A stretch of DNA of 64,000 bases from Elusimicrobia bacterium GWA2_62_23 (GCA_001799635.1 MGTV01000038.1:2376-66375), one strand, 5' to 3'; counted from the first letter of the stretch, positions 33,534 to 49,009 are shown. The notes: generated from the sequence alone by a model not told the origin. Program-made: numbers and translations.

Positions 33534-33556
33534 ATGTTCCTCCGGGAACGCCTTAA

Positions 33557-35176
33557 CTAGCGTATCACCGCCACAGTTCCGTTGTAAACCGTACCCTGTA
33601 CTTCTATCTGGTAGATGTAGACGCCGCCTGGCACCGCCTGGCCGCCGGACTTGGCGTCCCAGCCCAGGGAATTTGCCACCGGGCCGGTCTGCATCTGGGC
33701 CACCAGGGCGCCGCGCAGGTCGTAGATGCGGCCCTTCACTTCCTTGCCCTGGGGGTTGTCGAAAATAAACACCATGGTATCATTTTTGCCGTCGTTGTTT
33801 GGGGTTATCAGGCGGTTGGTGAGACCGGCCCGGTCCGCCGAGAAACTGCCGCTGCGCTCGGTGGTGCGCAGCTGGTAGCGCCCCATCAGCGTGGTCTCCA
33901 GCTGCACGCTGCGCTCCGCGTCGTTCACCAGGCCGAACATCTGCAGCCAGCGGCTGCCGTTGTAGTAGTACATGCTCACGGCCTTGGCGTCGGTCTGGGC
34001 GGAGGGGACTATCTGGGTCCCCGACTTGCGGTAATAGAGTTTCAGGAACCCGTTCTTGCTCAGGCGGAACTCGTCGTCGGCCTGCAGGCCGCCGCGGTAC
34101 GCGCGGAAGCCCACGGATTTTACCACGCGCCCTTCCAGGTCCTCGGGGAAGGTGGAGATCTCCACGCTGTAGGAATCCAGCGGGTCGTTGGTCTCCGAGA
34201 AGAACGCCCCGATGCCGTCCGCGGGAACCTCCAGGATACTCTGGTTATCGGGCGCCAGGAAGTAGAGGTTGCCGGAGAGGCTGTTGCGGGCGTAGGAGGG
34301 CAGGGAAGCGCCGGCCTTGTTCAGGGCGCGGGCGTGGTAATAGTAGTTATCCCCGTCGGAGACGGTGTCGGTCCAGGAGAAGGTGGCCGAAGAAACTTCC
34401 GCCAGGAACTGCCACTCGGCGTTGGCGGGGGCGGTGGCCCTGAACACCTGGTAGTTCCTGACCTCGAAGGGGTAGGCGGGGGCGAAGCGGTCGTTGAAGG
34501 CGATGCGGTTCTGGTACCCCGCCGGCGGGATCCAGGTCATGGTGACGGCGTTGCCGGCCCTCACTATCTTGAAGTTCATGGGGGCCAGCGGGACCAGCGC
34601 GAAGGCGGCCGCCGGGTTGGAAAGCTCGGAGCGGAGCTTGTGGGAGTTGGCCGTCTCGATGGCGAAGTAATAGGTGGTGCCGGGATTGAAGCCCTCTATG
34701 ATCTTGCTCTCAGAGGACCCCGCGGCCAGCGGGGTCCAGTCCTGAGAATAGGTGGAAGCGGAATAATAGGCCGCGTCGCTGGAAAGGAAGCCGGCGGTGG
34801 TATAGCGCAGGATATAGAAGTCGGCGGAGCCCACCGTGCGGGAGACGTCCGCGGAGGGCGCGGTCCAGGACATCCTGATGGCGTAGCTGGAGACCGCCAC
34901 CACTTCTATGTCGCCGATGGGCGCGGGCTGGGGGAAAAAGGCCAGCTTGCCGCTGCGCTGGGAGAAACCGGCGCTGGTCTGGGTGGAAGCGGCAAGGGTC
35001 TGCAGGTTGCCGTTCAGGACGAAATTAGAGGAGATCATCATGGCGGAGCCGTAGCCGCAGATCCCGTTGCCGTCCCGGAAGCTGGCCGATTCGAGTCGGG
35101 CGGCGCAGAGGGGCGCCGCCGGCGTGAGTGCCGCCAGCAGCAGGAGAAGGGCCCGCGCTTTGCCTGTAATGGTCAC
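33557..35176 (-). CDS. secreted FN3-repeat protein with C-terminal T9SS type-B (CHU_C-like) sorting domain
   Basis: I start at GTG (comp 35174-35176), giving the signal peptide VTITGKARALLLLLAALTPAAPLCAA. The 613-aa track ORF would run into the divergent gene. Contains FN3-like segments (IRMSWTAPSADVS...YILRYT; VTMTWIPPAG...YQVFRA). The C-terminus is LITPNNDGKNDTMVFIF...RIYDLRGALVAQM...WDAKSGGQAVPGGVYIYQIEVQGTVYNGTVAVIR. Confidence 0.7.
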   Translation of the reverse strand: MTITGKARALLLLLAALTPAAPLCAARLESASFRDGNGICGYGSAMMISSNFVLNGNLQTLAASTQTSAGFSQRSGKLAFFPQPAPIGDIEVVAVSSYAIRMSWTAPSADVSRTVGSADFYILRYTTAGFLSSDAAYYSASTYSQDWTPLAAGSSESKIIEGFNPGTTYYFAIETANSHKLRSELSNPAAAFALVPLAPMNFKIVRAGNAVTMTWIPPAGYQNRIAFNDRFAPAYPFEVRNYQVFRATAPANAEWQFLAEVSSATFSWTDTVSDGDNYYYHARALNKAGASLPSYARNSLSGNLYFLAPDNQSILEVPADGIGAFFSETNDPLDSYSVEISTFPEDLEGRVVKSVGFRAYRGGLQADDEFRLSKNGFLKLYYRKSGTQIVPSAQTDAKAVSMYYYNGSRWLQMFGLVNDAERSVQLETTLMGRYQLRTTERSGSFSADRAGLTNRLITPNNDGKNDTMVFIFDNPQGKEVKGRIYDLRGALVAQMQTGPVANSLGWDAKSGGQAVPGGVYIYQIEVQGTVYNGTVAVIR

Positions 35177-35295
35177 GCTATAATTATAGAAGAGGCGTGC
35201 GACCAAAATATTACAAAGAGATTTCGGTTTAACGCCGGAGAATCCACAATTCCGTAATAAAATAGTCACAATTGAAAAGTAGAATTGACTTGTAT

Positions 35296-35688
35296 ATGAG
35301 ACAAGCGCGTGCCCTGCTCCTGGCGGCCGCGGCGCTCCTGGCGCCGGGTTTCGCCGCGTCCTCCCCGTCGGGGCTGGGACTATCGATAGCCATGACACGC
35401 ATGGTCACCCCCAACCATGACGGCTTCAATGACACTTTTATTTTCCGCTGCTACAACCCGCGGGACTCGGCCATAGAAGCGAAGATCTTCGACATCTCCG
35501 GCCGCGAAGTGGCGCAGATGAGACTGAAGCAGCGGTCCACGGCCGCCTCGGTGTCGCCCAGCGCTTCCGGGGAATACTACGACCTGGAATGGGACCCCTC
35601 TTCAGGGCACATTCCCGGCGGCGTCTACATCTATCAGATCAGGTTGGAAACCAAGGTGTATAAGGGAACAATAACCGTAATAAGATGA
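35296..35688 (+). CDS. small secreted protein consisting only of a signal peptide plus a T9SS type-B (CHU_C-like) sorting domain
   Basis: 130 aa from the first ATG (TTG at 35272 is an alternative start): MRQARALLLAAAALLAPGFAA, then VTPNHDGFNDTFIF...KIFDISGREVAQM...WDPSSGHIPGGVYIYQIRLETKVYKGTITVIR. This is paralogous to the C-terminus of the divergent FN3 protein. ATGA overlap with the next gene. Confidence 0.7.
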   Translation: MRQARALLLAAAALLAPGFAASSPSGLGLSIAMTRMVTPNHDGFNDTFIFRCYNPRDSAIEAKIFDISGREVAQMRLKQRSTAASVSPSASGEYYDLEWDPSSGHIPGGVYIYQIRLETKVYKGTITVIR

Positions 35689-37667
35689 TTATGAACTCCC
35701 TGAAGAAAGACATCAAACTCCTGGCCGCGGCCGCGCTCCTGCTCGCGGGGGGAAACCTGCCGGCCTTCGCGGCCTTCGAGGACCTCGGCTTCGGGGCCAG
35801 GGGCCCCGGCATGGGCGACGCCTTCACGGGCGTGGCGGACGACATCTCTTCCATTTACTACAACCCGGCCGGCCTCTCGGCCATAGAGCGTCCCAAAGCC
35901 ATAGCGGCGCACTCCATGTTCTACAGCGGGCTCAGCGACGGGTCCAACCTGGGCCTCAGCGCGGCGGCCTTCGCCGTTCCGCTCTCCAACGGCCGCGGCG
36001 GCACCATCGGCGGCCTCTGGCACCAGTTCTCGCTCTCCGGCGTTTATTCCGAGAAGACCGCCCAGGTCTCCTGGGGCTACCGCTTCGACAGGCGCTCCCG
36101 GTACGAAAAGTTTTCCGTCGGCGCGTCGCTGAAATACCTTTCGCACGGCTTTACCCGCCTGGACGAGACCTACAACGCCGTGGAAGCCGGCCTGCTGCAG
36201 AACGGCAATACCGACCCGGTACTGGCCGGCGCCAATTCCCGGGCCGCCCTGGACGCCGACGTGGGCGCCCTTTACCGGCTCACCAAGCGCTGGACCCTGG
36301 GCGCGGCCCTCCTTAACGCTATGCAGGCCAACGTGGCCTTCAGCAGCGGCGACACGGACAAGATCCCCATGAAAACCAGGCTGGGCGCCTCCTACAAAAG
36401 CCTGTGGCTGGTGCTGGCCGCCGACGCCAGGATACAGAAAGCCCCGGACGGCAAGACCGACAAGCAGTTCATTTTCGCGGCGGAAAAGGTGTTCCCCAGC
36501 CTCGACCGCGGCGACGTGGGCGTGCGCGCCTCGCTCGGCGCCGGTGACCGCGAATTCAAGCAGGCCACCGCCGGCCTCTCCTACAAGATCCAGAAGATAC
36601 AGCTGGACTACGGCTTTTCCCTGCCTATCGGCACGGTCAAGGAGACCGCGGGCAACCACAAGGTGGCCCTTACCTACCATTTCGGTTCGGCCACCCAGAG
36701 CGAGATCGCCGAGGCCGAACTGCTGGAACAGTACAAGCGCCTGCGCGAGGCCAAGGACTACAAGAGCCCGCGCGAAACGGCCAGCCTCAACGACCCGCGC
36801 CTGGCCGACGTGAAGGAGCTCATAAAGGCGGAGAATTATTACGGCGCCAACAAGCTGCTGCTGGAGCGGGCCAACGAACTGCTGCCCGACTCCTCGGTGG
36901 TGGGGCTCACCAAGCGCCTCTCCACGGTGTCGGCTTTCTACCCGTCGCTGGCCGTGGAAGGCCGGCAGAAGAACCGCTGGGAGCAGCTCCTGAGCGGCGG
37001 CGTGAAGGATTTCCTCAACGGCCAGGACCGCCGCGCCATGAAGCAGCTCGCCTACGCGCAGAGCCTCAACCAGCAGGACTCCGCGCTGTCCAATTTCCTC
37101 GACCGCATAGGCGAGATCACGCGCGTCACGCCTGACCGCGTGCCGGCCGACTTCAGCCGCGGCTGGGTGGAGTACAAGCTGACCGAATCCGACGAGTTGT
37201 ACACCAAGAAACGCTACTCGGAGGCGCTGCGCAAGCTCGACGAAATGCTGGAGCTGGAGCCCAACGAACTTATCGGTCTCAAAAAGAGCGGTTCCTGCAA
37301 CTATATGCTGGGCAGCTACGCCAGGGCCGCCTACGACTGGAACAAGGCCTCCAAGCTGGAGAGCGACCCGCTGGAGAAGGCGAAGCTCTCCAAGATGATA
37401 GAGGAAGCCCGCCTGAAGCAGGGCAAGGCCGCCACCTGGCAGCCGCCCGTCAACGGCGCGGCCGTCCCCGGCGTGGAAGAGAGAGAGGAGACCAAGGCGG
37501 AGAAGGACGCCCGGGCGATAGAGAAGCTCTACCAGCTGGGCGCGGACTACTACGCCAAGGGCGAGTACGGCAAGGCGGCGGACACTTTCCGCAAGATCCT
37601 TACCATAGACCCGCAGAACACGCAGGCCAAGAAGGCCCTGGAGCGCATAATCCGCCTGTCGCGCTAG
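35685..37667 (+). CDS. outer-membrane beta-barrel (PorV/PorQ/FadL-like N-terminal half) fused to C-terminal TPR repeats
   Basis: 660 aa. Signal peptide (KLLAAAALLLAGGNLPAFAAF). GARGPGMGDAFTGVADDISSIYYNPAGL motif characteristic of PorV/PorQ/UPF0164-type barrels. Alternating beta-strand pattern to about residue 340 (ending ...HKVALTYHF). After that the sequence is helical and TPR-like (YGKAADTFRKILTIDPQNTQAKKALERI). Confidence 0.65.
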   Translation: MIMNSLKKDIKLLAAAALLLAGGNLPAFAAFEDLGFGARGPGMGDAFTGVADDISSIYYNPAGLSAIERPKAIAAHSMFYSGLSDGSNLGLSAAAFAVPLSNGRGGTIGGLWHQFSLSGVYSEKTAQVSWGYRFDRRSRYEKFSVGASLKYLSHGFTRLDETYNAVEAGLLQNGNTDPVLAGANSRAALDADVGALYRLTKRWTLGAALLNAMQANVAFSSGDTDKIPMKTRLGASYKSLWLVLAADARIQKAPDGKTDKQFIFAAEKVFPSLDRGDVGVRASLGAGDREFKQATAGLSYKIQKIQLDYGFSLPIGTVKETAGNHKVALTYHFGSATQSEIAEAELLEQYKRLREAKDYKSPRETASLNDPRLADVKELIKAENYYGANKLLLERANELLPDSSVVGLTKRLSTVSAFYPSLAVEGRQKNRWEQLLSGGVKDFLNGQDRRAMKQLAYAQSLNQQDSALSNFLDRIGEITRVTPDRVPADFSRGWVEYKLTESDELYTKKRYSEALRKLDEMLELEPNELIGLKKSGSCNYMLGSYARAAYDWNKASKLESDPLEKAKLSKMIEEARLKQGKAATWQPPVNGAAVPGVEEREETKAEKDARAIEKLYQLGADYYAKGEYGKAADTFRKILTIDPQNTQAKKALERIIRLSR

Positions 37668-37701
37668 CGCGCGGGGCGGGAGGGGGCGGGCGGCAGGCTA
37701 T

Positions 37702-39015
37702 ATGAAGCTTTTCCACAAGTTCAGCGCGGCGCTCACGGCCGCGGCCCTGGCCGCGGCTTTGCTGCTGAGCGGCATCTTCCTCAAGTTCCAGGAGCGCACC
37801 GTGCTCCGGGCGCAGCAGGCGCGGCTGCAGGCCATGGAACAGTCCGTGCTGGCCATGCTCGGCGAGGCCGAGCTGGCGGGCGACCCCCTGATGGCGGTGG
37901 ATTATCTTTCCGGCCTCTGTTTTTCAAGGCCGGAGATCCGCTCCTGCCGGTTGGACATCGGCCGGGGCATGGCCCCGGTGAAACTCCCCAAGGTCAAAGT
38001 TCCCGCACGCTCCGACGTTCCTCTTTCCAGGCGGCTGAGCGGCAAAAAGTACCGCGCGGAGCTGGATTTTTCGGCCGCGGCCCTGGACCGGGAGCGCAAG
38101 GAGGCCCTCTCCGGGGTCTGGCGAAACCTGGCCGCCGCTTTCCTGGCGGCCATGGCCGTGGCGGCCCTGCTCGCCCTGCTGCTGGCGCGCCGGCTCACCA
38201 GGCGCCTGCGGCGCCTCTCGGCCGAAGCGGCGGCGCTGGGAGAGGGGAAGTTCGGGGTAAAGACCGAAGTCTCCGGCTCGGACGAGGTGGCGGAGCTGGC
38301 GGGGGCCTTCAACGCCATGTCCGAGCGTCTGCTGGAACTGGAGACCATGAAGAAGAATTTCACGGCCTCGGTCACGCACGAACTGCGCTCGCCGCTGGGC
38401 GTCATAGAGACCTACGCCGCCATGCTCATCAAGGAAGAGGACCGCTTCACCCCCGACGATATTTCCGTCTTCAGGCGCATAAAGGAGAACGCCGGGCGCC
38501 TGGCCAATTTCGTCACGGCCATGCTGGACCTGGCCAAGATAGAGCGCGGCAAGATGGAACTGCGCCCGGCGAAAGAAGACCCCCTGGCGCTGGTCAGGGA
38601 CGCGGTTGATTTCCTCAAGCCGAAAGCCGACGAAAAAAACGTAGCCCTGGCCGCCCTGACCCCGCCGGGCCCGGCCGCGGCGACGCTCGACCGGGAGCTC
38701 GTGACCCACGCGCTCACCAATCTCATTTCCAACGCCATAAAATTCACGCCCGAAGGCGGCAAGGTCTTTGTGCGCGCCTCGCTCACCCAAAAAGTCCTCC
38801 GCGTGGAAGTGGAGGACACCGGCCCCGGCGTGAAACCCGGAGAAGCCGAAAAGATCTTTACCCCGTATTCCCAGGGCTCGGCGGCCCCCGGCCACGGCGG
38901 CACCGGCCTCGGCCTGGCGCTGTCCAAGGCCATCATAGAGCTGCACAAAGGCCGCATAGGCTGCGGCGCCGCCCCTGGCGGCGGCGCCCTCTTCTGGTTC
39001 GAGCTGCCGGTGTGA
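37702..39015 (+). CDS. membrane sensor histidine kinase (2 TM, HAMP, HisKA, HATPase_c)
   Basis: 437 aa. H-box FTASVTHELRSPLGVI, N-box LISNAIKFTPEGG, G-boxes EDTGPGV / GGTGLGLA. Confidence 0.85.
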   Translation: MKLFHKFSAALTAAALAAALLLSGIFLKFQERTVLRAQQARLQAMEQSVLAMLGEAELAGDPLMAVDYLSGLCFSRPEIRSCRLDIGRGMAPVKLPKVKVPARSDVPLSRRLSGKKYRAELDFSAAALDRERKEALSGVWRNLAAAFLAAMAVAALLALLLARRLTRRLRRLSAEAAALGEGKFGVKTEVSGSDEVAELAGAFNAMSERLLELETMKKNFTASVTHELRSPLGVIETYAAMLIKEEDRFTPDDISVFRRIKENAGRLANFVTAMLDLAKIERGKMELRPAKEDPLALVRDAVDFLKPKADEKNVALAALTPPGPAAATLDRELVTHALTNLISNAIKFTPEGGKVFVRASLTQKVLRVEVEDTGPGVKPGEAEKIFTPYSQGSAAPGHGGTGLGLALSKAIIELHKGRIGCGAAPGGGALFWFELPV

Positions 39016-39029
39016 CGAAGAGGGGCGAC

Positions 39030-39145
39030 GGGGGTATGGGTTCGGAGGGGCGTCGCGGAGGCCGAGGCTTGCGCAAGCGACGAGGCCGAGCGACGAGCGG
39101 CGAGAACGGTGTTCGAGACCGCGTACCCGACGGGCCCATACCCCC
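39030..39145 (+). repeat. structured intergenic repeat, family B copy 1
   Basis: Closing stem GGGGGTATGGG (39030-39040) / CCCATACCCCC (39135-39145). The core CGGAGGCCGAGGCTTGCGCAAGCGACGAGGCCGAG is shared with the element at 58288-58414 in the opposite orientation. Confidence 0.65.
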
Positions 39146-39220
39146 GGCGCACCGACACCCGATATACACCGGCCTGTAATAACTTTGTAACGTGCTTTAT
39201 ATAGAATAAGAGTACGGATT

Positions 39221-40648
39221 ATGAAAAAACTGCTGACCCTTTTCGCCGCCATCGCCTTCTTCACGGCCGCCGCCCGCGCCCAGGAGGCCGTTGAGCCTTC
39301 GCCCAGCGCCCAGGCCGCCGAACTCTCCTCCCGGATGCAGGAAGACGTCTCCCGCCTGCTCGAACAGCTCGTAGGCCGCGGCCGCGCCCGCTCCTTCGTG
39401 GCCGTGGAGGGGGAAATAGTTCTCAAGAGCAAGCTCGAATCCGGCGCGCCCTCCGAAGACACCCTCACCCTGCCCGGCTACGCCGCCGTCAACATCCTCG
39501 AGAAGACCGGCGAGTACCTCAAACAGAAGCGCGAAGAAAGCCAGCGCACCAGCGAATTCAAGGTCAAGAAACTTTCCGTCTCGCTCGTTTTCGACCGCAC
39601 CGTGCCCGAGGCGCGCGTCAACGCCATCAAGCTCATGATCTCCGACGTGCTGCGCCTGAGCGAGGCCCGCGGCGACAGCATCATCACCGCCCGCGCCGAG
39701 ATGCAGCCCTGGTGGCGCAGCGCCCTCGAGTCGCCCGAAGTGCGCCCGGTGCTCCTGATGTCCGCCTTCGGCCTCGTGGCCCTGATGGCCCTGCTGGTCA
39801 TAGGCTACATGCTGGCCTCGCGCCTGATGTCCGGTTTTGTGGATTACGCCCGCCTCAACGCCCCCGCCCAGGCCATTGGCGGCGGCGCCGGCGGCTACGG
39901 CGGCGCCGGCGGGGAAGAAGGCGGCGAGATGGGCGACATCATAGACGTGGAAGCCCGGGCCGCGGCCGGCGGTGCCCTGCTGGAAGCCGGTTCCGCTTTC
40001 GAATTCCTGGAGAAGTTGCCACCTGCCGAGGCCGCCGAACTGCTGGCGGAGGCGCCCGAAGAGGACGCTGCCATCATCATCGCCAACCTGGCCGACCGCA
40101 AACCCCACATTTCCTCCAAGATCCTGCTCGCCCTGCCGCCCTCGAAAAAGCAGGCGGTCAGCGCCCGCATGCTGGGCCTGAAGCAGGCCGAACCGGAGAA
40201 GATCTACGAGATAGAGAGCGACCTGCGCTCTCGCCTGGAGAAGAGCCTGCGCGGAGCCGAAAAACTCGGCCGCCTGCTTTCCCTGGTGGACGAATCGGCC
40301 CGGGCCGAGATCATGGAAACGCTCGCCCATGCAGACCCCAAAGGCTCGGAAGAAATGCGCCGCAAGATGGTAACTTTCGACGATATCTGCCGCCTGGACG
40401 ACAAGAACCTGCGGCCGCTCGTAGTCACCCTGCCCTACGTCGACTGGGCCGCCGCCCTCGCCGGCGCCGGCGAGACCGCCGTGGGCAACGTCACGAAGCT
40501 TCTGCCCGAGGACGTGCGCCTGATAGTGAAGGACCTGCTGGTGAACCGCCCCGAGGAGGAGAAGATCATCGGGGCCCGGGCCAAGATAATTTCCGCCGCC
40601 ATAGAAATGAACGCCAAGGGCCGCATAGTGATCAAGGAGGGCGTGTGA
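39221..40648 (+). CDS. FliF-like (signal peptide + periplasmic ring-motif + TM) / FliG-like (cytoplasmic rotor domain) fusion protein
   Basis: 475 aa. Signal peptide MKKLLTLFAAIAFFTAAARAQ. Periplasmic segment with a YscJ/FliF-like pattern (KKLSVSLVFDRTVPEARVNAIKLMISDVLRL). TM helix VRPVLLMSAFGLVALMALLVIGYML, then a Gly-rich linker. The C-terminal region aligns residue-for-residue with the E. coli FliG C-domain (MVTFDDICRLDDKNLRPLV....WAAALAGAGE......DLLVNRP...GRIVI versus MFVFENLVDLDDRSIQRLL....LLIALKGAEP......DLANRGP...GEMVI). Confidence 0.7.
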   Translation: MKKLLTLFAAIAFFTAAARAQEAVEPSPSAQAAELSSRMQEDVSRLLEQLVGRGRARSFVAVEGEIVLKSKLESGAPSEDTLTLPGYAAVNILEKTGEYLKQKREESQRTSEFKVKKLSVSLVFDRTVPEARVNAIKLMISDVLRLSEARGDSIITARAEMQPWWRSALESPEVRPVLLMSAFGLVALMALLVIGYMLASRLMSGFVDYARLNAPAQAIGGGAGGYGGAGGEEGGEMGDIIDVEARAAAGGALLEAGSAFEFLEKLPPAEAAELLAEAPEEDAAIIIANLADRKPHISSKILLALPPSKKQAVSARMLGLKQAEPEKIYEIESDLRSRLEKSLRGAEKLGRLLSLVDESARAEIMETLAHADPKGSEEMRRKMVTFDDICRLDDKNLRPLVVTLPYVDWAAALAGAGETAVGNVTKLLPEDVRLIVKDLLVNRPEEEKIIGARAKIISAAIEMNAKGRIVIKEGV

Positions 40649-42654
40649 GCAGCCCTTCCTCCGACGCCTTCCACACCGAGCTCGACTACCTCTGGGACGC
40701 CGTAAAAACGGCCCAGGAGGCGGAGGCCGTGTCGGCGCAGGAGCGGTCAAAAGCCAAAGAAGGCCTGGAGCACGCCTCCTCCCGGGTAATGCACCTCGAG
40801 AACGAGCTGGCCAAAGGCCTGGAGCGCGAAAGGGCCCTGCGCGCCGAAACCGAAAAATTCAAGAGAGAGGCCGGGCGCCTGGCCGCCGAGCTTGGGAAGG
40901 CGGCGCATCAGGCCGAAACCATCCACGCCGCCGCGGAATTGAGCGCCGGCTTCGAAAAGCGCCTGATAAAGAAAGACGGCGAGACCGCCATGCTGGACGC
41001 CGAAGTGGCCCGCCTGCAGGCCGAAACTTCCGCCCTGCGCGAGACCCTTAAAGGCCGTGACGCCGCGGTGGCCGCCCTGAAGAAAAAACTGGAAGGCCTG
41101 GCCGCCCTGCCCGAGATCGCGGGGATAATTTCGCAGGACTCGGCCGGATCCGGGCAGCCCGGCTCCGTCTACCTGCACCTGCTGGAACGCCTCGAAAAAG
41201 AAAAAGCCATGGCCTCGGGGGCCGAAGCTTCGCTGGCTGCCGCCGAAAAAGAACTTGAAGCGGCCCGAGCCGCCGCTGCAGCCGCAGAACATGAAACCGC
41301 CGGGCTGCGCTCCGCGCTGAGCCTCAAGTCCCGCGACCTGGAGAACCTGCAGGCCGCTATCCGGGAAGCCGACGGCAGGCACGCGGTTTCAGCCGCCGAG
41401 CGCGGCGCGCTGGAGGCCAGGGCGGCCGAACTCAAGGCCGCGCTGGGAGAGAGAGAAAGCGCCCTGGAGCGCGCCGCCGCCCAAGCCGCGGGGCTGCGCC
41501 GGGAACTGGACGCCGCCAGGGCCGAAACCGCCCGGGTGCGCGACGAAGCCGCGGCCCAGGCGCTGCGCACCGAGGAGCAGAAAGGCAATTTTTCGGGAGC
41601 GGTGGCCCAGGTCTTCGACCTGCAGAAGCGCGCCGCCGCCCTGAGGTCGGAACTGACGGCGGAAAAAGAGCGCAGCGCGGCGCTGGCCGCGGACCTTTCC
41701 GCCCGGGCCGCTGACCTGGAGAAGGTCAACGGGCTGCTGCGGGACGCCAAGAACGGCCTGGCCCAGGAAAAAGAGACGGGGCGCCGCGCCGGCGTCCGGA
41801 TCAAGGCCCTGGAAGCCGAGATCGAGGACCTGAAAGCCAAGGTGGCCGCCGCCGGAGAATACTCGGCGAAACTACTGCGCGCCGTGCAGGAGCGCGACCT
41901 GGCCCTGGGCGCCGTAAAGGCGGACCTGCGCAAGACCGAAGCCTTGGAGATGGAGAACGAGGACCTGCGCCGCAAGAACGTGAAGTTCAGCGGTCTCCTG
42001 CGCCGCGAGCAGTCCGATTTCACCGCCCGGGTCATAACCGCCCTGGAGCGCGCCGCCAAAGACCTCAAGACTTTCAACCTCCGGGTCCCCGCCGCGGAGC
42101 GCAAGGGCATAGAGCCCGCGCTCAAGAACCTGCTGGCTTCCGTCAACCTGATGAAAGGCTGGCAGGAGTATATGGACCCCGAGACCCCGGAACTGGCCGA
42201 CACGGACCTGGCCGGGTTCTTCTCCGGCGAAGCCGGGAAATGGGAACGCGCCTTCAAGCAGCGCAAACTGTCCATCTCCTACGCGGTCGCCACGCCGCGC
42301 ATGCGCGCGAGGCTCCACCCGGAGAGCATGAAGATGCTCTTCTACCACCTCGCCAAGAACGCCTACGAACACCTGCCTTCAGGCGGCAGCCTGCGGGTGA
42401 CGCTGAAAGCGTCGGAGGACGGCCGCCAGGCCGTGCTCTCCTTCGAGGACACCGGTCCCGGTTTCCAGCAGGAGACCCTGGCGAAACTCTTCGCGCCGTT
42501 CAACACCTCCGAGAAGGGGAAGGCCGGCATAGGCCTGGCCGTCTGCGCCCGCATAGCCGAAAAGCACGGCGGCACGCTGAACGCGGCGAACAGGAAAGAC
42601 AGGGGAACTCTGGTGGAAGTGAGGCTGCCGCTAGGCAGCGAAGTTAAAGCTTGA
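40645..42654 (+). CDS. long coiled-coil protein with C-terminal histidine-kinase-type ATPase domain, no recognisable H-box
   Basis: Starts at GTG 40645 (AAGGAGG 5 nt upstream, GTGTGA overlap with the upstream stop). The 980-aa track ORF is an out-of-frame 5-prime extension. About 470 aa are Ala/Glu/Arg/Leu heptad-rich coiled coil. The tail has an N-box LAKNAYEHLPSGG and G-boxes EDTGPGF / GIGLAV. The DHp position reads FTARVITALERAAKDL, with no His. Confidence 0.7.
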   Translation: MSSPSSDAFHTELDYLWDAVKTAQEAEAVSAQERSKAKEGLEHASSRVMHLENELAKGLERERALRAETEKFKREAGRLAAELGKAAHQAETIHAAAELSAGFEKRLIKKDGETAMLDAEVARLQAETSALRETLKGRDAAVAALKKKLEGLAALPEIAGIISQDSAGSGQPGSVYLHLLERLEKEKAMASGAEASLAAAEKELEAARAAAAAAEHETAGLRSALSLKSRDLENLQAAIREADGRHAVSAAERGALEARAAELKAALGERESALERAAAQAAGLRRELDAARAETARVRDEAAAQALRTEEQKGNFSGAVAQVFDLQKRAAALRSELTAEKERSAALAADLSARAADLEKVNGLLRDAKNGLAQEKETGRRAGVRIKALEAEIEDLKAKVAAAGEYSAKLLRAVQERDLALGAVKADLRKTEALEMENEDLRRKNVKFSGLLRREQSDFTARVITALERAAKDLKTFNLRVPAAERKGIEPALKNLLASVNLMKGWQEYMDPETPELADTDLAGFFSGEAGKWERAFKQRKLSISYAVATPRMRARLHPESMKMLFYHLAKNAYEHLPSGGSLRVTLKASEDGRQAVLSFEDTGPGFQQETLAKLFAPFNTSEKGKAGIGLAVCARIAEKHGGTLNAANRKDRGTLVEVRLPLGSEVKA

Positions 42655-43324
42655 AGATATAACCCAGACCGAAAACGGTCCGCAGTTTGGACCCGAATGA
42701 ACGCCCCAGGCGGCGGCGGAGCGCCTCTATGCGCTTGTCCACGGCCCTGGCCCCGGCGGAGGAGTCCTGCCGCCAGACCTGCTCCAGCAGCATGCTGCGC
42801 GACACCAGCCGGCCCTGGTTGCGCAGGAAATAGAGCAGCAGGTCGAACTCCAGGGCGGTAAGCTTGAGCGCGGAGCCGCCCACCCGCGCCGTGCGCGCCT
42901 CGGGGGAAACGCGCAGGGCCCCGAAGGCGTACTCGGCCGGCTTTTCGGCGGCGGCGCGCCGCCCGCCGCGGCCCAGCAGGTTGAGCACCCTGGCCCGGAA
43001 GAGGGCGGGGTCGGGGGGAAAGGGGAAATACTCGTCGGCCCCGTTGTCGAAGCAGACGGCGGCGGCGGCGGGGGAATACTGACCGCCTCCGGTCAGGACC
43101 AGCAGGGAGCCTGCGGTGCGGGGCGCCCCGCGCAGCACGGCTACGAGGTCGCGGCCGCTCATGTCGGGCAGGCCCGCGTCTATGACGGCCAGGCCGTCCC
43201 CGCGCCAGCTTTTGAGGAACCTGCCGGCCGAAGGGTAGGAACGCACGCGCAGGCCCGTAAGCGAGGCGCGCGCGAAAGCGGCCACTCCTGGGTCGGCGGT
43301 AACGCAGTGGACAACCTGGTTCAT
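42644..43324 (-). CDS. OmpR/PhoB-type winged-helix response regulator (receiver domain divergent)
   Basis: 226 aa. C-terminal LTALEFDLLLYFLRNQGRLVSRSMLLEQVW...VDKRIEALRRRLG...LRTVFGLGYIF. N-terminal receiver-like VIDAGLPDMSGRDLV. Its 3-prime end overlaps the convergent gene by 11 nt. Confidence 0.75.
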   Translation of the reverse strand: MNQVVHCVTADPGVAAFARASLTGLRVRSYPSAGRFLKSWRGDGLAVIDAGLPDMSGRDLVAVLRGAPRTAGSLLVLTGGGQYSPAAAAVCFDNGADEYFPFPPDPALFRARVLNLLGRGGRRAAAEKPAEYAFGALRVSPEARTARVGGSALKLTALEFDLLLYFLRNQGRLVSRSMLLEQVWRQDSSAGARAVDKRIEALRRRLGRSFGSKLRTVFGLGYIFKL

Positions 43325-43698
43325 GCGGGGAAAACGGCGGCCTTGATGCGCCGGAGCAGTTCGTCCGGGTCGAAGGGCTTAAGGACGTAGCCCGCGGCGC
43401 CCAGCTTGAGCCCCTCGGAGACCATGTCCACCTCGGAGCGGACCGTGAAGAAGATTATCGGGACGCCGGCCAGCGCGGGCGTCCTGCGGATGCGGCGGGC
43501 GGCCTCGAAACCGCTGATATCGGGCAGGCCCACGTCCAGCAGGATCATGTCGGGCTTCTCGGCGGAGGCGAGGGCCACGCCCTCCAGGGCGGTGGGGGCG
43601 GTGACCACGGCGCAGCCGGCCTTCGCCGCGATGCGCGCCGCTATGCGCAGGTAATCCGGCTCGTCGTCCACTACCAGGACCTTGGGGCGGGGCTTCAT
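43321..43698 (-). CDS. single-domain CheY-like response regulator
   Basis: 125 aa: KVLVVDDEPD, MILLDVGLPDISG, ...YVLKPFD. Confidence 0.85.
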   Translation of the reverse strand: MKPRPKVLVVDDEPDYLRIAARIAAKAGCAVVTAPTALEGVALASAEKPDMILLDVGLPDISGFEAARRIRRTPALAGVPIIFFTVRSEVDMVSEGLKLGAAGYVLKPFDPDELLRRIKAAVFPA

Positions 43699-44069
43699 TT
43701 ACGGGGGAGGAGGGCTTCCACTTTCTTCTGCAGGAAGGAAAGTTCCACGGTCTTGCTCATGAACTCGCGGCAGTTGGTCTCCTGCCGGAAGAGCTCGCTC
43801 ATGTTCTTGTCGAAGAAGGAGCCGGTTATGATCAGCACGGGGATATTGCGCGTGTCGTCGTCGGTCTGGAGGTTCCTGACCACCTCTATGCCGCCGATGT
43901 CCGGCATCATGACGTCGCAGAGGATGACGTCGGGCTTGATGGCCTTGGCCTTGGCTATGCCCTCGCGGCCGTCGCCGGCTATCTGGACGTTAAAGCCCAG
44001 GTCCGTGAAATAATCGGACACCATCGTGCGGAATTCCACGTTATCGTCCACAATAAGCATCAGGCTCAT
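43695..44069 (-). CDS. single-domain CheY-like response regulator
   Basis: 124 aa: MLIVDDNVEF, VILCDVMMPDIGG, PVLIITGS. Confidence 0.85.
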   Translation of the reverse strand: MSLMLIVDDNVEFRTMVSDYFTDLGFNVQIAGDGREGIAKAKAIKPDVILCDVMMPDIGGIEVVRNLQTDDDTRNIPVLIITGSFFDKNMSELFRQETNCREFMSKTVELSFLQKKVEALLPRK

Positions 44070-44123
44070 TTAAAGCTCCCTAATCCCTGTTTCAGTAGAG
44101 TATATTGTAAATCCCGGCCGTTT

Positions 44124-46244
44124 TCAAGACGGGCTCGGCACCGCGGGCGGCGGGGCGGCCATCTCCTTGGAAATGGTGAAGATGAACTTGCTGCCCTTGC
44201 CCACTTCGGACTCCACCCAGATGTCGCCCTTGTGCAGCTGCACCGTCATCTGGCACATCGCCAGGCCCAGGCCGAAACCCTGGCTCTTATGTTCCTCCAT
44301 CTGGGAGTATTTCTCGAAGATCTCCTTGCGCTTGTTCTCCGGGATGCCGGGGCCGGTGTCCTGCACCGCGAAGAAAACCTTCTGCGCGTCCTCCCAGGCG
44401 GACAGGGTGATAGTGCCGCCGCTGGGGGTGAACTTCAGGGAGTTGCCCATCAGGTTGGTGATGACGCGCTCGAGCAGGATGGGGTCCGCCGTGAACGCGA
44501 TCCTGGAGGGAGGCGCGGAAAGCAGGAGCTTTATGCCCTTGGGGCCGGCCACCGGTTCGTGGTTCTCCTTGACCCGCGTGAGCAGGGCCTCGGCGTCCAG
44601 GGAATCCAGCTGCAGCGTCATGTTGCCGCGCTCCAGTTTGGTGGTGTTGAGGATGTCGTCTATCATGCCGCGCAGCCGGCGCGAGGAGTAGAGCATGCTC
44701 TGCAGGTACTTGTCGGTGGACGGGGACGCCGGGATCTTCTTCATCAACAGCTCGGTGTAGCCCTGCAGCGTGGAAAGGGGCGCGCGCATGTCGTGCGTGA
44801 TCATGTGGAAGAAATCTTCCTTGGCCTTCTCTATCTCCTTCTCGCTCGTGATGTCGCGGATGATGATGACGCGGCCGGGGCGCTTGAGCGTAGCGAGCAG
44901 GAACTGGTTGGAGATGATCCGGAAGCTCTTGGTCACGGTACTGTTCTCGTTGACTATAGGGGCGTCCACCTCCGCCTTCAGGTACTTGTCCTTCAAGGCC
45001 AGCATTTCGGTGAGCGAGTTGAAGAAAGCCTCGTTCTTCACCGAGCGGGGCACGGCCACGTCGGCGGAGATCTTGGGGATACCCAGGAGCTTCAGGGCCG
45101 TATTATTGGAATAGATCAGCGAGCCGCGGTCGTCCACCAGGAGCACGCCGTCGGAAATGGTGTCTATGAGGGCCTGGGCCTTGCCCTTCTCTTCCACGAT
45201 CTGGTTCAGCTGGAAGGCGCGGTAGGCCTGCAGCTCCAGCATGAGCCGGTTGAGGATGCCCACCAGGCTCTTGATCTCGGGCCAGCCCTCCTGCGGAATG
45301 ACCGAATCCAGGTGCTGGGTCTTGAGGAACTGCTTGACGCCGCTGACCATGTTGTTGACGGGGCGGATGATGCGGTTGGAGATCAGGAAGACCACCAGCA
45401 TCGTCACGCCGAAGATACCGACGGCCAGCAGGGAGAAGACCAGGATGGACTTGCGCTGCTTGCCGTACAGCTCCTCTTCCGACTGCACGGAGACGGCGGC
45501 CCAGTCCAGCTTGTCGATGGCCGCGTAGGCGCCGGCGTACTCCTCCTTGCTGAAGAGGAATTTCGCGATAGTGCCGGTGCGGCCGCCGCTGCGGAAGACT
45601 TTCCTGAGCAGGTCGGGCTCGTAGCCCATCCCTTTCATGTCCTGGCAGGGCAGGGGGCGGCCCTGTCCATCGGAGATGAACACGCGGCCGGTCCGGCCGG
45701 TGCGCTGCGAGTTTATTTTACCCAGCAGCTTGTCCAGCGTGAAATGGAAGACCACCACCCGCTCGTCCACCAGCGGGTAGGCGATGGGGAAATAGGCCTG
45801 GTCCTTGACGCACAGCACCTCGCCGGACGTCACTATCCCGGAGTCCTTGGCCTGCGCTATCAGCTTATCCTGGAAAAGGGCCAGGGACTTCGGCTCCTTC
45901 ACCTTCTCGCTCTGCAGGAAGAACAGTTCTTTCCCGTCCTTGCCCACGAGGGACAGGGACATGATGTCGGAATTTATGCGCGCCGCCTGGTGGATCACCT
46001 CGGCCTCGGAGACCTTCTTGCCGCGCAGGGGGTTCTCGAACTCGTAGAGGAAGGCCAGGTTGCGGTTGGTATTGAGGAACCACTCGTCCACGTTGGCCGC
46101 GGACAGGCGCGACAGGCCCTGGTGCAGCTCGAAGTAGCTGGTCACCGAGGAATTATACTGGTAGATGTTCCAGCCCACCGTCAGCAAGAGCGGCAGCACC
46201 GCTATCGCCAGCAGGATCAGCAGGAACCTCGTAGTCAGTTTCAT
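44124..46244 (-). CDS. sensor histidine kinase (periplasmic Cache-like domain, TM, HAMP, PAS, HisKA, HATPase_c)
   Basis: 706 aa. N-terminal TM helix, a roughly 250-aa extracytoplasmic domain, and a second TM helix (ILVFSLLAVGIFGVTMLVVFLI). H-box FFHMITHDMRAPLSTL. G-boxes QDTGPGI / GFGLGLA. Confidence 0.85.
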   Translation of the reverse strand: MKLTTRFLLILLAIAVLPLLLTVGWNIYQYNSSVTSYFELHQGLSRLSAANVDEWFLNTNRNLAFLYEFENPLRGKKVSEAEVIHQAARINSDIMSLSLVGKDGKELFFLQSEKVKEPKSLALFQDKLIAQAKDSGIVTSGEVLCVKDQAYFPIAYPLVDERVVVFHFTLDKLLGKINSQRTGRTGRVFISDGQGRPLPCQDMKGMGYEPDLLRKVFRSGGRTGTIAKFLFSKEEYAGAYAAIDKLDWAAVSVQSEEELYGKQRKSILVFSLLAVGIFGVTMLVVFLISNRIIRPVNNMVSGVKQFLKTQHLDSVIPQEGWPEIKSLVGILNRLMLELQAYRAFQLNQIVEEKGKAQALIDTISDGVLLVDDRGSLIYSNNTALKLLGIPKISADVAVPRSVKNEAFFNSLTEMLALKDKYLKAEVDAPIVNENSTVTKSFRIISNQFLLATLKRPGRVIIIRDITSEKEIEKAKEDFFHMITHDMRAPLSTLQGYTELLMKKIPASPSTDKYLQSMLYSSRRLRGMIDDILNTTKLERGNMTLQLDSLDAEALLTRVKENHEPVAGPKGIKLLLSAPPSRIAFTADPILLERVITNLMGNSLKFTPSGGTITLSAWEDAQKVFFAVQDTGPGIPENKRKEIFEKYSQMEEHKSQGFGLGLAMCQMTVQLHKGDIWVESEVGKGSKFIFTISKEMAAPPPAVPSPS

Positions 46245-46250
46245 AGGCCG

Positions 46251-46880
46251 TTAGATCTCGTGCCTGACTATGTTTATCTCTATGCGCCGGTTCTTGGACC
46301 GCCCTTCGGGGGTGTCGTTGGTCTGTACCGGCTTGAACTCGCCGTAGCCCACGGCGGAAAGCTTTTCGGGCGCGACGCCTTCTTTTATGAAGAACTGCAG
46401 CACCGTGAAGGCCCGGGCGGAGGAGAGCTCCCAGTTGGAGCGGAAGCGGGTGCCGCGGCGGCCGAGCGGCCGGTTGTCGGTGTGTCCCTCTATCTGGATG
46501 GGGTTGGGCAGGTCCTTGAAGACCGCGGTGAGGCGGCGCAGGTGGGGGTAGGAGGACTCCTTCAGGATATCGCTGCCGGGGGCGAAAAGTATGGGGTCGG
46601 AGAAATTGATGCTGATCTTGTTGGCGGAGATCTCCACCTGGGCTATCTGCTGGATGCCGTGTTTGGAGAACAGCGTGCTGGCTATCTGGGTGTCTTTGCC
46701 GAAGGTCTCTTCCAGGGCCTTCGCCGAGAACTGGGTGGTTATGCTCTTGGAGCTGTAGAAAGCGAACAGGATCATGAAAAAGATCATGAGGTAGCTCATC
46801 ATGTCGCCGTAGGTGATGGCCCACAGGGCGCCGCGGTTAAGCTCGTTCTCCAGTTCGTCTTCGCGTTCGTAGAAGCGCAT
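46251..46880 (-). CDS. motB: MotB-type stator subunit (TM with conserved Asp + OmpA-like peptidoglycan-binding domain)
   Basis: 209 aa. WAITYGDMMSYLMIFFMILFA carries the proton-binding Asp context of MotB. The C-terminus reads IEGHTDNRPL...SNWELSSARA...NRRIEI. Confidence 0.8.
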   Translation of the reverse strand: MRFYEREDELENELNRGALWAITYGDMMSYLMIFFMILFAFYSSKSITTQFSAKALEETFGKDTQIASTLFSKHGIQQIAQVEISANKISINFSDPILFAPGSDILKESSYPHLRRLTAVFKDLPNPIQIEGHTDNRPLGRRGTRFRSNWELSSARAFTVLQFFIKEGVAPEKLSAVGYGEFKPVQTNDTPEGRSKNRRIEINIVRHEI

Positions 46881-46890
46881 AAATCGTTCG

Positions 46891-47673
46891 TTAAGCCCTC
46901 GCCGCGGGGCCGGAGGGTTTGGAGCCCTCGAGCAGCTGGTAGCCGCGCAGGTGCATGTCCACCAGGTGGGGGGTCTTGCCGCTCATGATGTCTATGACGC
47001 CTTCCAGGATGAGCTGCAGCACCAGGGTCTCCTCCACGGCGCGCAGGCGGACTTTGTTGGCCACCGGCACGAAGATGAGGTTGGAGAGCGCGATACCGAA
47101 GAAAGCCGAACTGATGGCCACGGCCATGGAACGGCCGATCATGGTGGGGTCGGAAATATTGCTCAGGGTCTGGATGATGCCGAAGAGGGTACCGATCAGG
47201 CCGAACATAGGGGAGAGCACGCCGGCCGTACGGTAGAAGTTGGAATCCTCCTGGATGTCCAGGCGGCGGCGGCGGATCTCCTCTTCCAGGATGGCCCGGG
47301 TCTCGCGGGACTCGGCACTGATCATGGCCACGCCGACGGCGCGCTTGAGGAAACCGCCGGCGAAAGCCGGGTCGGTATTGGAGAGGGCCATGATGCCGCC
47401 CTGCTTCTGGGCGGTCTCGGCCATGCTCACCAGCATGCGCACCGCCGCGTCCACGGAGGGGGTCTTGGGATTGCCGAAGATATCGAAGAAGGCCTTGAGC
47501 CCGGTCACGAACCGGCGGAAAGAGGTGTTGATGACGGTCGCGGCCAGGGTGCCGCCCAGCACGATGATAATGCCGTGGAGGTCCATGAGCTTGTCGGCGA
47601 TGCCCGAGGAAAAAATACCCCAGCCCATTACGGCCCCGCCCAGCAGGAAGCCCACGATCGTCATCATATCCAT
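46891..47673 (-). CDS. motA: MotA/PomA-type stator subunit (MotA/TolQ/ExbB proton-channel family)
   Basis: 260 aa, 4 TM, with a large cytoplasmic loop between TM2 and TM3. Motifs SPMFGLIGTLFGI and AVAISSAFFGIALSNLIFVPVANKV. Paired with motB. Confidence 0.75.
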   Translation of the reverse strand: MDMMTIVGFLLGGAVMGWGIFSSGIADKLMDLHGIIIVLGGTLAATVINTSFRRFVTGLKAFFDIFGNPKTPSVDAAVRMLVSMAETAQKQGGIMALSNTDPAFAGGFLKRAVGVAMISAESRETRAILEEEIRRRRLDIQEDSNFYRTAGVLSPMFGLIGTLFGIIQTLSNISDPTMIGRSMAVAISSAFFGIALSNLIFVPVANKVRLRAVEETLVLQLILEGVIDIMSGKTPHLVDMHLRGYQLLEGSKPSGPAARA

Positions 47674-47854
47674 AGTTCAGTTCTCCAGAAAACCGGATTC
47701 ACGCCTTGTTTATTGTAGCGTAAGCATGTTACCGAAATTTTACGTATATATATTATAAAATTGCGCGCCGTTTTGGGTTTTTGATAACATTATATTGCCT
47801 GGCGGCATTCAAAAGGCCGCTATCGGATTTTTTCGCCAAAACAGGAGCTCTCAA

Positions 47855-49009
47855 ATGGATTACCTACTGACCGAGCAGCAGACCATGATCCGCGACCTGG
47901 CCCGCAAGATAGCCCAGGAGAAGATAAAGCCGGTATCGGCCCAGTACGACGAAAGCGAGGAGTTCGCCTGGCCCATTATGAAGGTCCTAGCCGAAAGCGA
48001 CCTGTTCGGCGTCTACATCCCCGAGGCCTACGGCGGCCTGGGCGGCGGCATCATGGACATGTGCCTGGTGACCGAGGAACTGTCCCGCGCCTGCGGCGGC
48101 ATCGCCCTGGGCTACGCCGGCACGGGCCTGGGCACGCTGCCGATCCTGCTGCACGGCTCGGAAGAGCAGAAGAAGAAATACCTGCCCGACATAGCCAAGG
48201 GCAAGCGCCTGGCCGCTTTCTGCCTCACCGAGGCCGAAGCCGGCTCCGACGCCGCCAACATGAAGACCACCGCCCGCAAGGAGGGCGACAAGTACATCCT
48301 CAACGGCACCAAGCAGTGGATCACCAACGCCGGCGAGGCCGAGATCTACACCGTAATAGCCCTCACCGACAAGAGCAAAGGCGTGCGCGGCGCCAGCGCC
48401 TTCATAGTGGAGAAAGGCACGAAGGGCATGGAGTTCGGCAAGAAAGAGAAGAAGATGGGCATCCGCGCCAGCGCCACACGCGAAGTGATCTTCACTGACT
48501 GCGAAGTTCCGGCCGCGAACCTCATCTCCCGCGAAGGCATGGGCTTCATAGTGGCCCTCAAAACGCTCGACACCTCCCGCCCCGGCGTGGCGGCGCAGGC
48601 CGTGGGCATAGCCCAGGGAGCCCTGGACCACGCTGTGGACTACTCCCGCACCCGCGTGCAGTTCGGCCAGCCTATTTCAAGCTTCCAGGCCGTGCAGCAC
48701 ATGCTCGCCGACATGGGCACCCAGGTGGAGGCCGCCCGGGCGCTGGCCTACTCGGTGGCCCGCATGGTGGACGCCGGCGTAAAGTCGGTCTCCAAAGAAT
48801 CGGCCATGGCCAAGCTCTTCGCCAGCGACGTGGCCATGAAGGTGGCCGTGGACGCCGTGCAGATCCTGGGCGGCTACGGCTACATGCGCGACTACCCGGT
48901 GGAGAAGTACATGCGCGACGCCAAGATCACCCAGATCTACGAAGGCACCAACCAGATCCAGCGCAACGTCATCGCCGCCCACATGATCAAGGAGACGCTG
49001 AAGAAGTAA
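47855..49009 (+). CDS. acyl-CoA dehydrogenase (short-chain/butyryl-CoA type)
   Basis: Taken from ATG 47855 (AGGAG RBS): MDYLLTEQQTMIRDLARK.... Motifs CLTEAEAGSDA and QILGGYGYMRDYPVEKYMRDAKITQIYEGTNQIQR. Confidence 0.88.
   Translation: MDYLLTEQQTMIRDLARKIAQEKIKPVSAQYDESEEFAWPIMKVLAESDLFGVYIPEAYGGLGGGIMDMCLVTEELSRACGGIALGYAGTGLGTLPILLHGSEEQKKKYLPDIAKGKRLAAFCLTEAEAGSDAANMKTTARKEGDKYILNGTKQWITNAGEAEIYTVIALTDKSKGVRGASAFIVEKGTKGMEFGKKEKKMGIRASATREVIFTDCEVPAANLISREGMGFIVALKTLDTSRPGVAAQAVGIAQGALDHAVDYSRTRVQFGQPISSFQAVQHMLADMGTQVEAARALAYSVARMVDAGVKSVSKESAMAKLFASDVAMKVAVDAVQILGGYGYMRDYPVEKYMRDAKITQIYEGTNQIQRNVIAAHMIKETLKK

Follow-up and report, generated by a model that had tools for sequence, protein, structure and literature searches.

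The gene at positions 40645..42654 (+) of a 64,000-nucleotide (nt) stretch of DNA from Elusimicrobia bacterium GWA2_62_23 (GCA_001799635.1, MGTV01000038.1:2376-66375), the whole of which is called the window here, encodes a coiled-coil protein of 669 amino acids (aa) with the core of a histidine kinase and without its phospho-accepting histidine. The ancestor of this soluble protein, referred to below as the target, was a class I (NtrB/ZraS/AtoS-like) histidine kinase. The target retains the fold of the DHp hairpin and a CA domain with every ATP- and Mg-binding residue, and ATP binding is predicted on the basis of these residues. The histidine itself was lost long ago, and stably. The sensor and transmembrane (TM) part has been replaced by a segmented heptad coil of ~440 aa with three conserved motifs. 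Purifying selection acts on the gene, which is firmly tied, genetically, to a module of 13 genes and, in the clade of the window, to a FliG-like gene.

The reading that we favor, and to which we give about an even chance, is that the target is a cytoplasmic, probably homodimeric pseudo-histidine kinase that works via protein contacts, either scaffolding or regulating an envelope machine specific to Elusimicrobiota. The parts of this machine would be a MotA/MotB stator, a membrane-anchored FliF/FliG-like protein, a PorP/SprF-TPR protein, and surface proteins with CHU_C, a type-B C-terminal domain of T9SS (type IX secretion system). This make-up shares the same balanced estimate, which covers both statements jointly. 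The gene had been singled out earlier, from the sequence alone, as encoding a giant coiled-coil protein with an intact kinase ATPase domain and no phospho-accepting histidine. The coordinates given in that sequence-only reading are exact, but the word giant is an overstatement for 669 aa.

The Kinase Core

HATPase_c, at aa 561–663 (E 8e-21), is the sole Pfam family above threshold on the target. The CA domain as a whole extends over aa 521–663 (42205..42633, +), as supported by Pfam, by profile matches to the Protein Data Bank (PDB), and by invariant ATP-site residues. The three boxes quoted in the sequence-only reading are located within it: the N box LAKNAYEH at aa 569–576 (42349-42372), the G1 box EDTGPGF at aa 601–607 (42445-42465), and the G2 box GIGLAV at aa 628–633 (42526-42543), with an F box at ~42487-42507 (all +). 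The domain has 39 invariant columns, and the residues invariant in 26 orthologues of 48–78% identity include N572, E575, D602, G604, P605, G606, P618-T621, and G628-A632. Distant members of the family (25–38% identity, 654–679 aa) retain N572, E575, D602, G606, P618, F619, G628, and G630.

Upstream of the CA domain lies a DHp-like helical hairpin without histidine (41989..42171, +), composed of an α1 helix at aa ~449–480 and an α2 helix at aa ~483–510, which is supported by structure prediction, Foldseek, and hhalign. In the AlphaFold2 model of aa 436–669 (pLDDT 81, pTM 0.75), this hairpin is packed on the α/β CA domain. In Foldseek comparisons, the model covers 230 of the 232 columns of the DHp+CA core of ZraS with a TM-score of 0.69–0.74, and it also matches CpxA, EnvZ, HK853, WalK, and the pseudo-kinase DivL (PDB 4q20). 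A structure model of the C-terminal part, which had been proposed as a check, thus superposes on whole DHp+CA cores, and the target is modeled as having the complete class I histidine-kinase core fold.

Profile comparisons give the same assignment over α2 and the CA domain. When the family profile is compared with the PDB, kinases match from profile position 505 on, with ZraS (9jfj, E 3e-17) followed by KinB and ThkA, and NCBIfam kinase models cover only ~aa 518 to the C-terminus. Alignment of the C-terminal 234 aa with nine bona fide DHp-CA cores by hhalign gives 99.9% probability over α2 and CA; the local alignment begins at the hairpin loop, and α1, the H-box helix, is unalignable. The α2 helix is the best conserved segment of the target (0.86), and the CA domain is next (0.83). 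A GHL ATPase (GyrB/MutL/Hsp90/MORC) was considered and rejected: the catalytic Glu is absent, the residue four before N572 being a variable H/Q/N, and the F and G2 boxes and all structural matches are of the histidine-kinase type.

The Missing Histidine

At the position assigned to the H-box in the sequence-only reading, the target has FTARVITALERAAKDL (aa 459–474, nt 42019-42066), which contains no histidine, as had been stated. The histidine residues of the protein are at positions 10, 43, 50, 88, 94, 178, 216, 246, 558, 568, 576, and 641, with none within aa 247–557. The only one that is invariant in the 26 orthologues is H641, inside the CA domain, and no DHp column holds a conserved histidine in the 26 close and 9 distant orthologues or, more widely, among some 60 orthologues and the deeper relatives.

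This conclusion does not depend on how the H-box is aligned. In a forced global hhalign alignment, of very low confidence, R454 corresponds to the His of the H-box and the invariant E455 to its Glu. The motif H[IV][KR]KPLE, found in a sister subgroup, would place the lost His at R462, and the register of the sequence-only reading places it at T465. At R454, R462, and T465 no orthologue has His, and these sites hold variable T/S/N/G/A/K or R/K. Since no register yields a His, the target is His-less in any of them.

Searches for HisKA, HisKA_3, and HWE variants, also proposed as a check, give no HisKA-type family that reaches the DHp of the target. No such Pfam family matches at E<=1, and no NCBIfam model at E<=0.1 extends into the DHp. 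Among the 66 families matched by the 26 members, the 25 most widely matched do not include HisKA, HisKA_2, HisKA_3, or HWE. An ordinary soluble histidine kinase would have a bona fide DHp with a conserved His upstream of its ATPase domain; here the DHp fold is present and the His is absent. The term pseudo-kinase, offered as one of two options from the sequence, is therefore apt for a protein with the full DHp+CA fold and with no conserved His in its family or deep relatives.

The Coiled-Coil Region

The first 455 aa are composed of 23% A, 13% E, 13% L, and 9% R. AlphaFold2, run with 26 orthologues (pLDDT 71), predicts helices at aa 5–153, 156–169, 175–244, 250–367, and 375–445. To measure periodicity, hydrophobicity was averaged over alignment columns and compared with shuffled columns. 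The best period is exactly 3.50 residues (z 9–17) in segment 1 (aa 5–153; 40657..41103, +; z 13.8–16.6), segment 2 (aa 177–244; 41173..41376, +; z 9.2–11.8), and segment 3 (aa 250–367; 41392..41745, +; z 11.4–14.2). The claim of heptad-like repeats is therefore well above chance. Segment 4 (aa 375–445; 41767..41979, +), which runs into the DHp-like hairpin, has a z of 4.0–6.8 at this period, and 3.50 is its best period in the A4 alignment only. The CA domain gives no 3.50-residue signal. The region had been described as 470 uninterrupted residues of repeats; a heptad coil is indeed present, but it amounts to ~440 aa in four segments, with breaks at aa 154–176, 245–249, and 368–374.

Three motifs stand out from the plain coils, whose conservation is ~0.6. 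An N-terminal motif at aa 9–26, ...E(L/I)DYLWxAxxxAQ... (40669..40722, +), has L16, W17, A23, and Q24 invariant in the 26 orthologues and a conservation of 0.81, and its form (F/Y)LW..AQ(D/E) is also present in distant members and in the sister subgroup. The coil break at aa 154–176 (41104..41172, +) is itself conserved, as LPEI...SG...Y with Pro156 and Pro172; L155, P156, G170, and Y176 are invariant, the pLDDT dips, and the helix is broken. The best conserved motif of the N-terminal part is EEQxxNFxxAVxxVFxLQ at aa 311–327, inside segment 3 (41575-41625, +). Its N315, F316, A319, V320, F324, and Q327 are invariant even at 25% identity, and conservation over aa 309–330 is 0.80.

No TM segment is found in the target, in agreement with the sequence-only reading, and the 19-residue Kyte-Doolittle mean never exceeds 0.78. 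Outside the CA domain, Pfam gives only sub-threshold matches to generic coiled-coil families.

The Gene and Its Relatives

The GTG start of the target at 40645 shares the four nucleotides GTGA with the TGA stop of the upstream FliG-like open reading frame (ORF), and the Shine-Dalgarno sequence AAGGAGG (40634-40640) lies within the 3′ end of that gene, so that the whole junction occupies 40634..40648 (+). The translational coupling stated in the sequence-only reading is conserved: of 36 species loci, 29 have a 4-nt RTGA overlap with an AAGGAGG-like Shine-Dalgarno sequence, and another 3 have a TGATG overlap. A search of 5.8 billion proteins yields 54 orthologues, full-length or partial, with 48–100% identity to the target, and every one of these relatives starts at the equivalent of MSxxSDAF. 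A longer mechanical ORF at 39712-42654 was accordingly set aside as an artefact of high GC content (65–67%). Full-length orthologues have 644–679 aa (median 661), and this length range is kept down to 25% identity.

The family is found only in Elusimicrobiota. An exhaustive HMMER scan covered 1.84 billion cluster representatives. The whole DHp-like+CA profile is matched by 11 clusters only, whose source-named members are all Elusimicrobiota; ordinary kinases match the CA domain only, from 150 bits down. Among 185,579 species genomes, ~42 loci have full-length matches, labeled Elusimicrobia, Elusimicrobiales, Elusimicrobiaceae, or, for a few metagenome-assembled genomes, simply "bacterium", and all remaining matches are to the CA domain only.

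The lower matches of the HMMER scan include deep relatives of 333–698 aa, such as those at L050 9503-10504, L053 9104-10624, L088 10001-12097, and L089 10001-11500, with total lengths of 333, 506, 698, and 499 aa. Their N-terminal coil of ~100–450 aa is often followed by a Pro-rich linker; next come a hairpin that is His-less and a CA domain whose G2 box reads GHLGLGL. They occur in the same MotAB/FliG-like/PorP/CHU_C/kinase/regulator module, in which the gene order is rearranged. In an alignment of 28 sequences of this superfamily, the ATP-site columns are kept, and the best hairpin column has His in 8 of 28. In a sister subgroup, the L053 ORF, P0101, and P0103 have an H-box-like H[IV][KR]KPL, and P0082 has Glu at that site. 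Because deep relatives are likewise His-less with an intact ATP pocket, this state is old and stable and not the result of recent decay. The coil, reduced to ~100 aa and followed by a Pro-rich linker in deep lineages, is therefore a variable tether and not a conserved core.

A Conserved Cluster of Thirteen Genes

The target belongs to a cluster of 13 genes at 29820..47673, with members on both strands, which was defined by Pfam, by synteny in loci L001 and L003-L008, and by tblastn over 42 species loci. The order is a 1237-aa protein, an fn3-CHU_C protein, a small CHU_C protein, a PorP/SprF-TPR protein, a HAMP kinase, the FliG-like protein, the target, an OmpR-like regulator, two REC proteins, a dCache-PAS kinase, MotB, and MotA. 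A riboflavin operon and acyl-CoA dehydrogenase/ETF genes flank the cluster. The same gene order is found in contigs with target orthologues of 55%, 48%, 38%, 27%, and 25% identity, and tblastn with the 13 window proteins shows a collinear block in every locus with enough flank. Overall, the cluster is collinear in more than 25 Elusimicrobia species. Within the cluster, only the 1237-aa surface protein evolves faster than the target, which has 28–76% identity compared to 74–95% for MotB.

Co-occurrence with the FliG-like gene, which the sequence-only reading had put forward for examination, is complete: this gene (39221..40648, +) stands directly upstream of the target in every orthologous locus with enough flank. 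According to Pfam, NCBIfam, and hydropathy, its product begins with a signal peptide and a periplasmic FliF_C-like region, followed by a single TM segment at aa 173–207 and by cytoplasmic FliG_M and FliG_C domains; the YscJ_FliF_C match is weak, and a Gly/Ala-rich linker separates the TM segment from FliG_M. When aligned with E. coli FliG, the protein has no FliG_N and no EHPQR motif, an acidic residue at the equivalent of D288, and no equivalent of R281. It is effectively the C-terminal half of FliF fused to FliG_MC, with a torque helix in which the charged residues are kept only in part. The scanned ORFs of the window include neither FliM nor FliN nor any further flagellar gene, and no GldKLMN genes are seen in the window. 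The FliG-like gene is separated from the HAMP kinase gene by a non-coding gap of 205 nt (39016-39220). In some orthologous loci this gap is longer (~520 nt in locus L003), and it may serve the FliG-like/target pair as an internal promoter or a regulatory region.

The signaling genes of the cluster include two intact, CheY-like single-domain REC genes and the HAMP kinase, which has the architecture HAMP-HisKA-HATPase. A recent duplication of one of the neighboring kinases is an unlikely origin for the target, whose CA domain is NtrB/ZraS-like, whereas the H-boxes of the neighbors are of the PhoR/EnvZ type (THELRSPL, THDMRAPL). The OmpR-type regulator (42644-43324, −) converges on the target with an 11-nt 3′ overlap. 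Its receiver is degenerate in the clade of the window (Response_reg E 0.005, Lys replaced in YFPFPP, a single N-terminal acidic residue) and canonical in the orthologues of the deeper loci L050 and L053.

The outer-membrane protein of the cluster is a PorP/SprF/PorV-like barrel fused to TPR repeats. Upstream of its gene are three genes for predicted surface proteins: the 1237-aa protein (29820-33533, −), in which Pfam finds no domain; an fn3 protein that carries the CHU_C type-B C-terminal domain (33557-35398, −); and a protein of 138 aa (35272-35688, +) that is hardly more than a signal peptide and a CHU_C-like domain. CHU_C/PorP pairs are a hallmark of the T9SS of Bacteroidota, and their presence beside MotAB in Elusimicrobia is unexpected. 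At the other end of the cluster, the dCache kinase, MotB, and MotA are its best conserved proteins (74–95% identity across species), and the GC content over their genes (44001-48000) is 0.59–0.61, compared to 0.65–0.67 in the rest of the cluster. In locus L034, tblastn finds no MotB/MotA downstream of an otherwise complete cluster. In locus L049, the target match is partial and spans 2.7 kb, and the gene may be interrupted or the assembly faulty. Downstream of the cluster, the window has an ordinary PAS histidine kinase (52985-54217, +), whose canonical H-box TTHDLRTPL is missed as HisKA at E<=1e-5, and a PilB/PilT-type T2SSE ATPase (56938-58278, +).

MotAB proteins also occur in Zorya anti-phage systems, and such a reading was considered for the cluster. 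PADLOC gives the target only generic coiled-coil matches (DndD, LmuB, JetC; E 4e-6 to 3e-3), the likeness of MotB to ZorB reflects common descent, and no ZorA match is obtained for MotA. A Zorya-like defense reading is therefore unsupported. It has been reported that free-living Elusimicrobiota have motAB and fliG without structural flagellar genes, in a role called unclear (bioRxiv 10.1101/2022.07.08.499144). In literature searches on the target family, on FliG-like non-flagellar systems, and on motility in Elusimicrobia, this remark was the only one found, and no description of the target or of the module was encountered.

Comparison with Known Systems

The closest sequence relatives of the target are kinases of the NtrB/ZraS/AtoS type (PDB 9jfj, 3a0r, 3d36), with which it shares the N, G1, F (PFxTT), and G2 boxes, a short lid, and an α2 helix that is homologous at the profile level. 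Unlike them, it has no H-box, an unalignable α1, no TM, PAS, or HAMP input, and no NtrC-type partner.

Among pseudo-kinases, DivL of Caulobacter crescentus (PDB 4q20) resembles the target in having a DHp+CA core of class I from which the phospho-accepting His is absent, and the two superpose with a TM-score of 0.64–0.68. In PMC4211667, DivL is presented as a kinase repurposed to read a phosphorylated single-domain response regulator via its DHp, and the cluster of the target encodes two single-domain receivers. The two proteins have only ~15% sequence identity, however, and differ in several respects. DivL has Tyr at the His position, N-terminal TM/PAS sensor domains, and ties to cell-cycle genes, whereas the target has a variable T/S/N/G/A/K, a ~440-aa coil with no PAS matched, a strictly conserved ATP site, and ties to MotAB and a FliG-like protein. 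PsmA, of the polarisome of Streptomyces venezuelae, is likewise His-less, works in a coil-rich cytoskeletal or polar setting, and has a His-replacing residue that varies among orthologues (PMC12963549). In contrast to the target, with its invariant ATP motifs and a coil in the protein itself, PsmA has PAS domains, a disordered linker, a C-terminal receiver, and degenerate ATP motifs.

Other likenesses concern function more than descent. CheA has a four-helix dimerization bundle without His (P3) joined to an active CA domain (P4), which phosphorylates a His on a separate domain, and it controls the motor via CheY-like receivers. The target shares the His-less bundle attached to a CA domain; it does not share the HPt acceptor domain (P1), P2, or the CheW-like P5 of CheA, and Pfam gives it no Hpt or CheW match. 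AglZ and FrzS of Myxococcus consist of a receiver or pseudo-receiver and a coiled coil, without a CA domain, and serve a non-flagellar motility with MotAB-like stators. Like the target, they are long coiled-coil regulators beside such machinery. The comparison with them made in the sequence-only reading is one of analogy and not of homology, as the target has a CA domain and no Response_reg match, and its N-terminus is the DYLW motif followed by coil. FliM and FliN would resemble the target in the proposed position only, as cytoplasmic partners of FliG that receive CheY-like signals; they have no sequence or domain similarity to it, and no FliM or SpoA/FliN domain is detected.

Proposed Mechanism and Alternative Explanations

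According to the reading that we favor, the target would dimerize via its DHp bundle and coils and would be unable to autophosphorylate on the DHp, and would therefore act through protein contacts. The coil may tether it to the motor. The leading candidate for a partner is the cytoplasmic FliG_M/C part of the FliG-like protein, which is without the EHPQR motif for binding FliM and without FliM/FliN in the cluster. The conserved, His-less DHp surface could dock a CheY-like receiver of the cluster, by analogy with the reading of DivK~P by DivL, and nucleotide binding in the CA domain might gate the conformation of the protein. The outcome would be a switch-complex-like adaptor that links two sensor kinases and response regulators to motor output. 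We regard as unlikely the more far-reaching proposal that the target is the switch or C-ring equivalent of a flagellum-independent rotary machine of Elusimicrobiota. In such a machine, MotA5B2 stators would turn a ring of FliF/FliG fusion proteins coupled across the periplasm to PorP/SprF-TPR and CHU_C adhesins, for gliding or for surface-protein transport without GldLM. The target would bind FliG_M/C in place of FliM/FliN and, by reading CheY-like receivers or by using ATP, would start, halt, or reverse the motor.

Several observations weigh against the favored reading. The partner assignments (FliG-like protein, REC proteins) come from gene neighborhood only. The idea that the target is a partner of the rotor protein, already voiced in the sequence-only reading, is supported by genomics (adjacency, the 4-nt overlap, and a cluster collinear to 27–38% identity), and a physical contact is putative. 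In locus L088, the relative of the target adjoins MotA and not the FliG-like gene, and adjacency to the latter is therefore not universal in the superfamily. The full-length AlphaFold2 model has a pTM of only 0.27, for which reason its secondary structure alone was used. In deep lineages, the Pro-rich linker lies between coil and DHp, so the coil is no signaling helix there. Finally, strict conservation of the ATP site exceeds what a pure docking adaptor needs, and the ATP sites of DivL and PsmA, by contrast, are relaxed or lost (PMC12963549).

This last point is what keeps a catalytic role on another acceptor a serious rival: the ATP site of the target is invariant, whereas that of the docking-only PsmA is decayed. 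The target might be an active kinase with a non-canonical acceptor outside its own DHp, following the logic of CheA or of Ser/Thr kinases (PDK/BCKDK, SpoIIAB/RsbW, plant phytochromes), with the FliG-like protein, a receiver, or the DHp of a neighboring kinase as candidate substrates. We hold this for a minority possibility, though one of real weight. ATP- and Mg-binding residues that are invariant in the family and in the deeper superfamily, despite the absent DHp His, are hard to explain without a use for ATP, and the CA domain belongs to the ordinary catalytic type of NtrB/ZraS, its lid being of normal length. Docking-only pseudo-kinases have degenerate ATP sites, as PsmA shows (PMC12963549). 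An acceptor is difficult to name, however. Neither the target nor the cluster has an HPt, STAS, or other known substrate domain; both neighboring kinases own an H-box and a CA domain; and the target has no conserved His outside the CA domain and no conserved Ser, Thr, or Tyr on α1, its only invariant Tyr being Y509 at the α2/CA junction. It is improbable, in our estimate, that the target is instead mainly a structural coil (a filament, ruler, or polar scaffold like AglZ, FrzS, HmpF, or crescentin) whose kinase end is a head for dimerization or assembly. Strong heptad periodicity over ~440 aa, tight conservation of length in the clade of the window, weak Pfam similarity to rod and coil families including Rod_CreS, and a faint HmpF match on one orthologue would fit such a role. 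Yet all coil-family matches are generic and below Pfam cut-offs, there is no receiver domain as in AglZ/FrzS, and the coil is the least conserved part (~0.6 compared to 0.83–0.86), ranging from ~100 to ~450 aa among lineages in which the DHp-like hairpin and CA domain are constant. That variability falls to the coil makes a purely cytoskeletal role less likely.

Two simpler explanations are both excluded by the data. That the target is an ordinary soluble histidine kinase whose His was overlooked, in another register or in a DHp of the HisKA_2, HisKA_3, or HWE type, seemed conceivable given the complete core fold and the H-box-like motif of three sister-subgroup members, and we now rate it as extremely improbable. 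For the target itself it is refuted by direct reading of aa 247–557; the orthologues close and distant have no conserved His column, the best superfamily column stops at 8 of 28, P0082 carries Glu at the site even within the sister subgroup, and the DHp is beyond the reach of every HisKA-type match in Pfam or NCBIfam. The other, that the gene is a decaying, non-functional relic of a kinase, we place at the very bottom of our estimates. The catalytic His is lost and the protein evolves fast for its cluster, but ~60 assemblies have an intact ORF of constant length, the invariant CA columns and the coil motifs persist, the translational coupling is conserved, and the His-less state is ancient and common to the deep lineages.

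Implications

To our knowledge, there are only a few pseudo-histidine kinases, and in those that have been studied, DivL and PsmA, the ATP site is relaxed. The target lost its His long ago and kept all ATP-binding residues, and the question it poses is what use a kinase core without an acceptor makes of ATP. Its gene is also a marker of a module that joins flagellar-type parts with Bacteroidota-type surface parts in a non-flagellated phylum. These 13 genes may encode an undescribed, possibly new envelope machine. Defining the module makes the enigmatic presence of motAB and fliG in this phylum (bioRxiv 10.1101/2022.07.08.499144) testable, and it may bear on how FliG and stators are coupled outside the flagellum.

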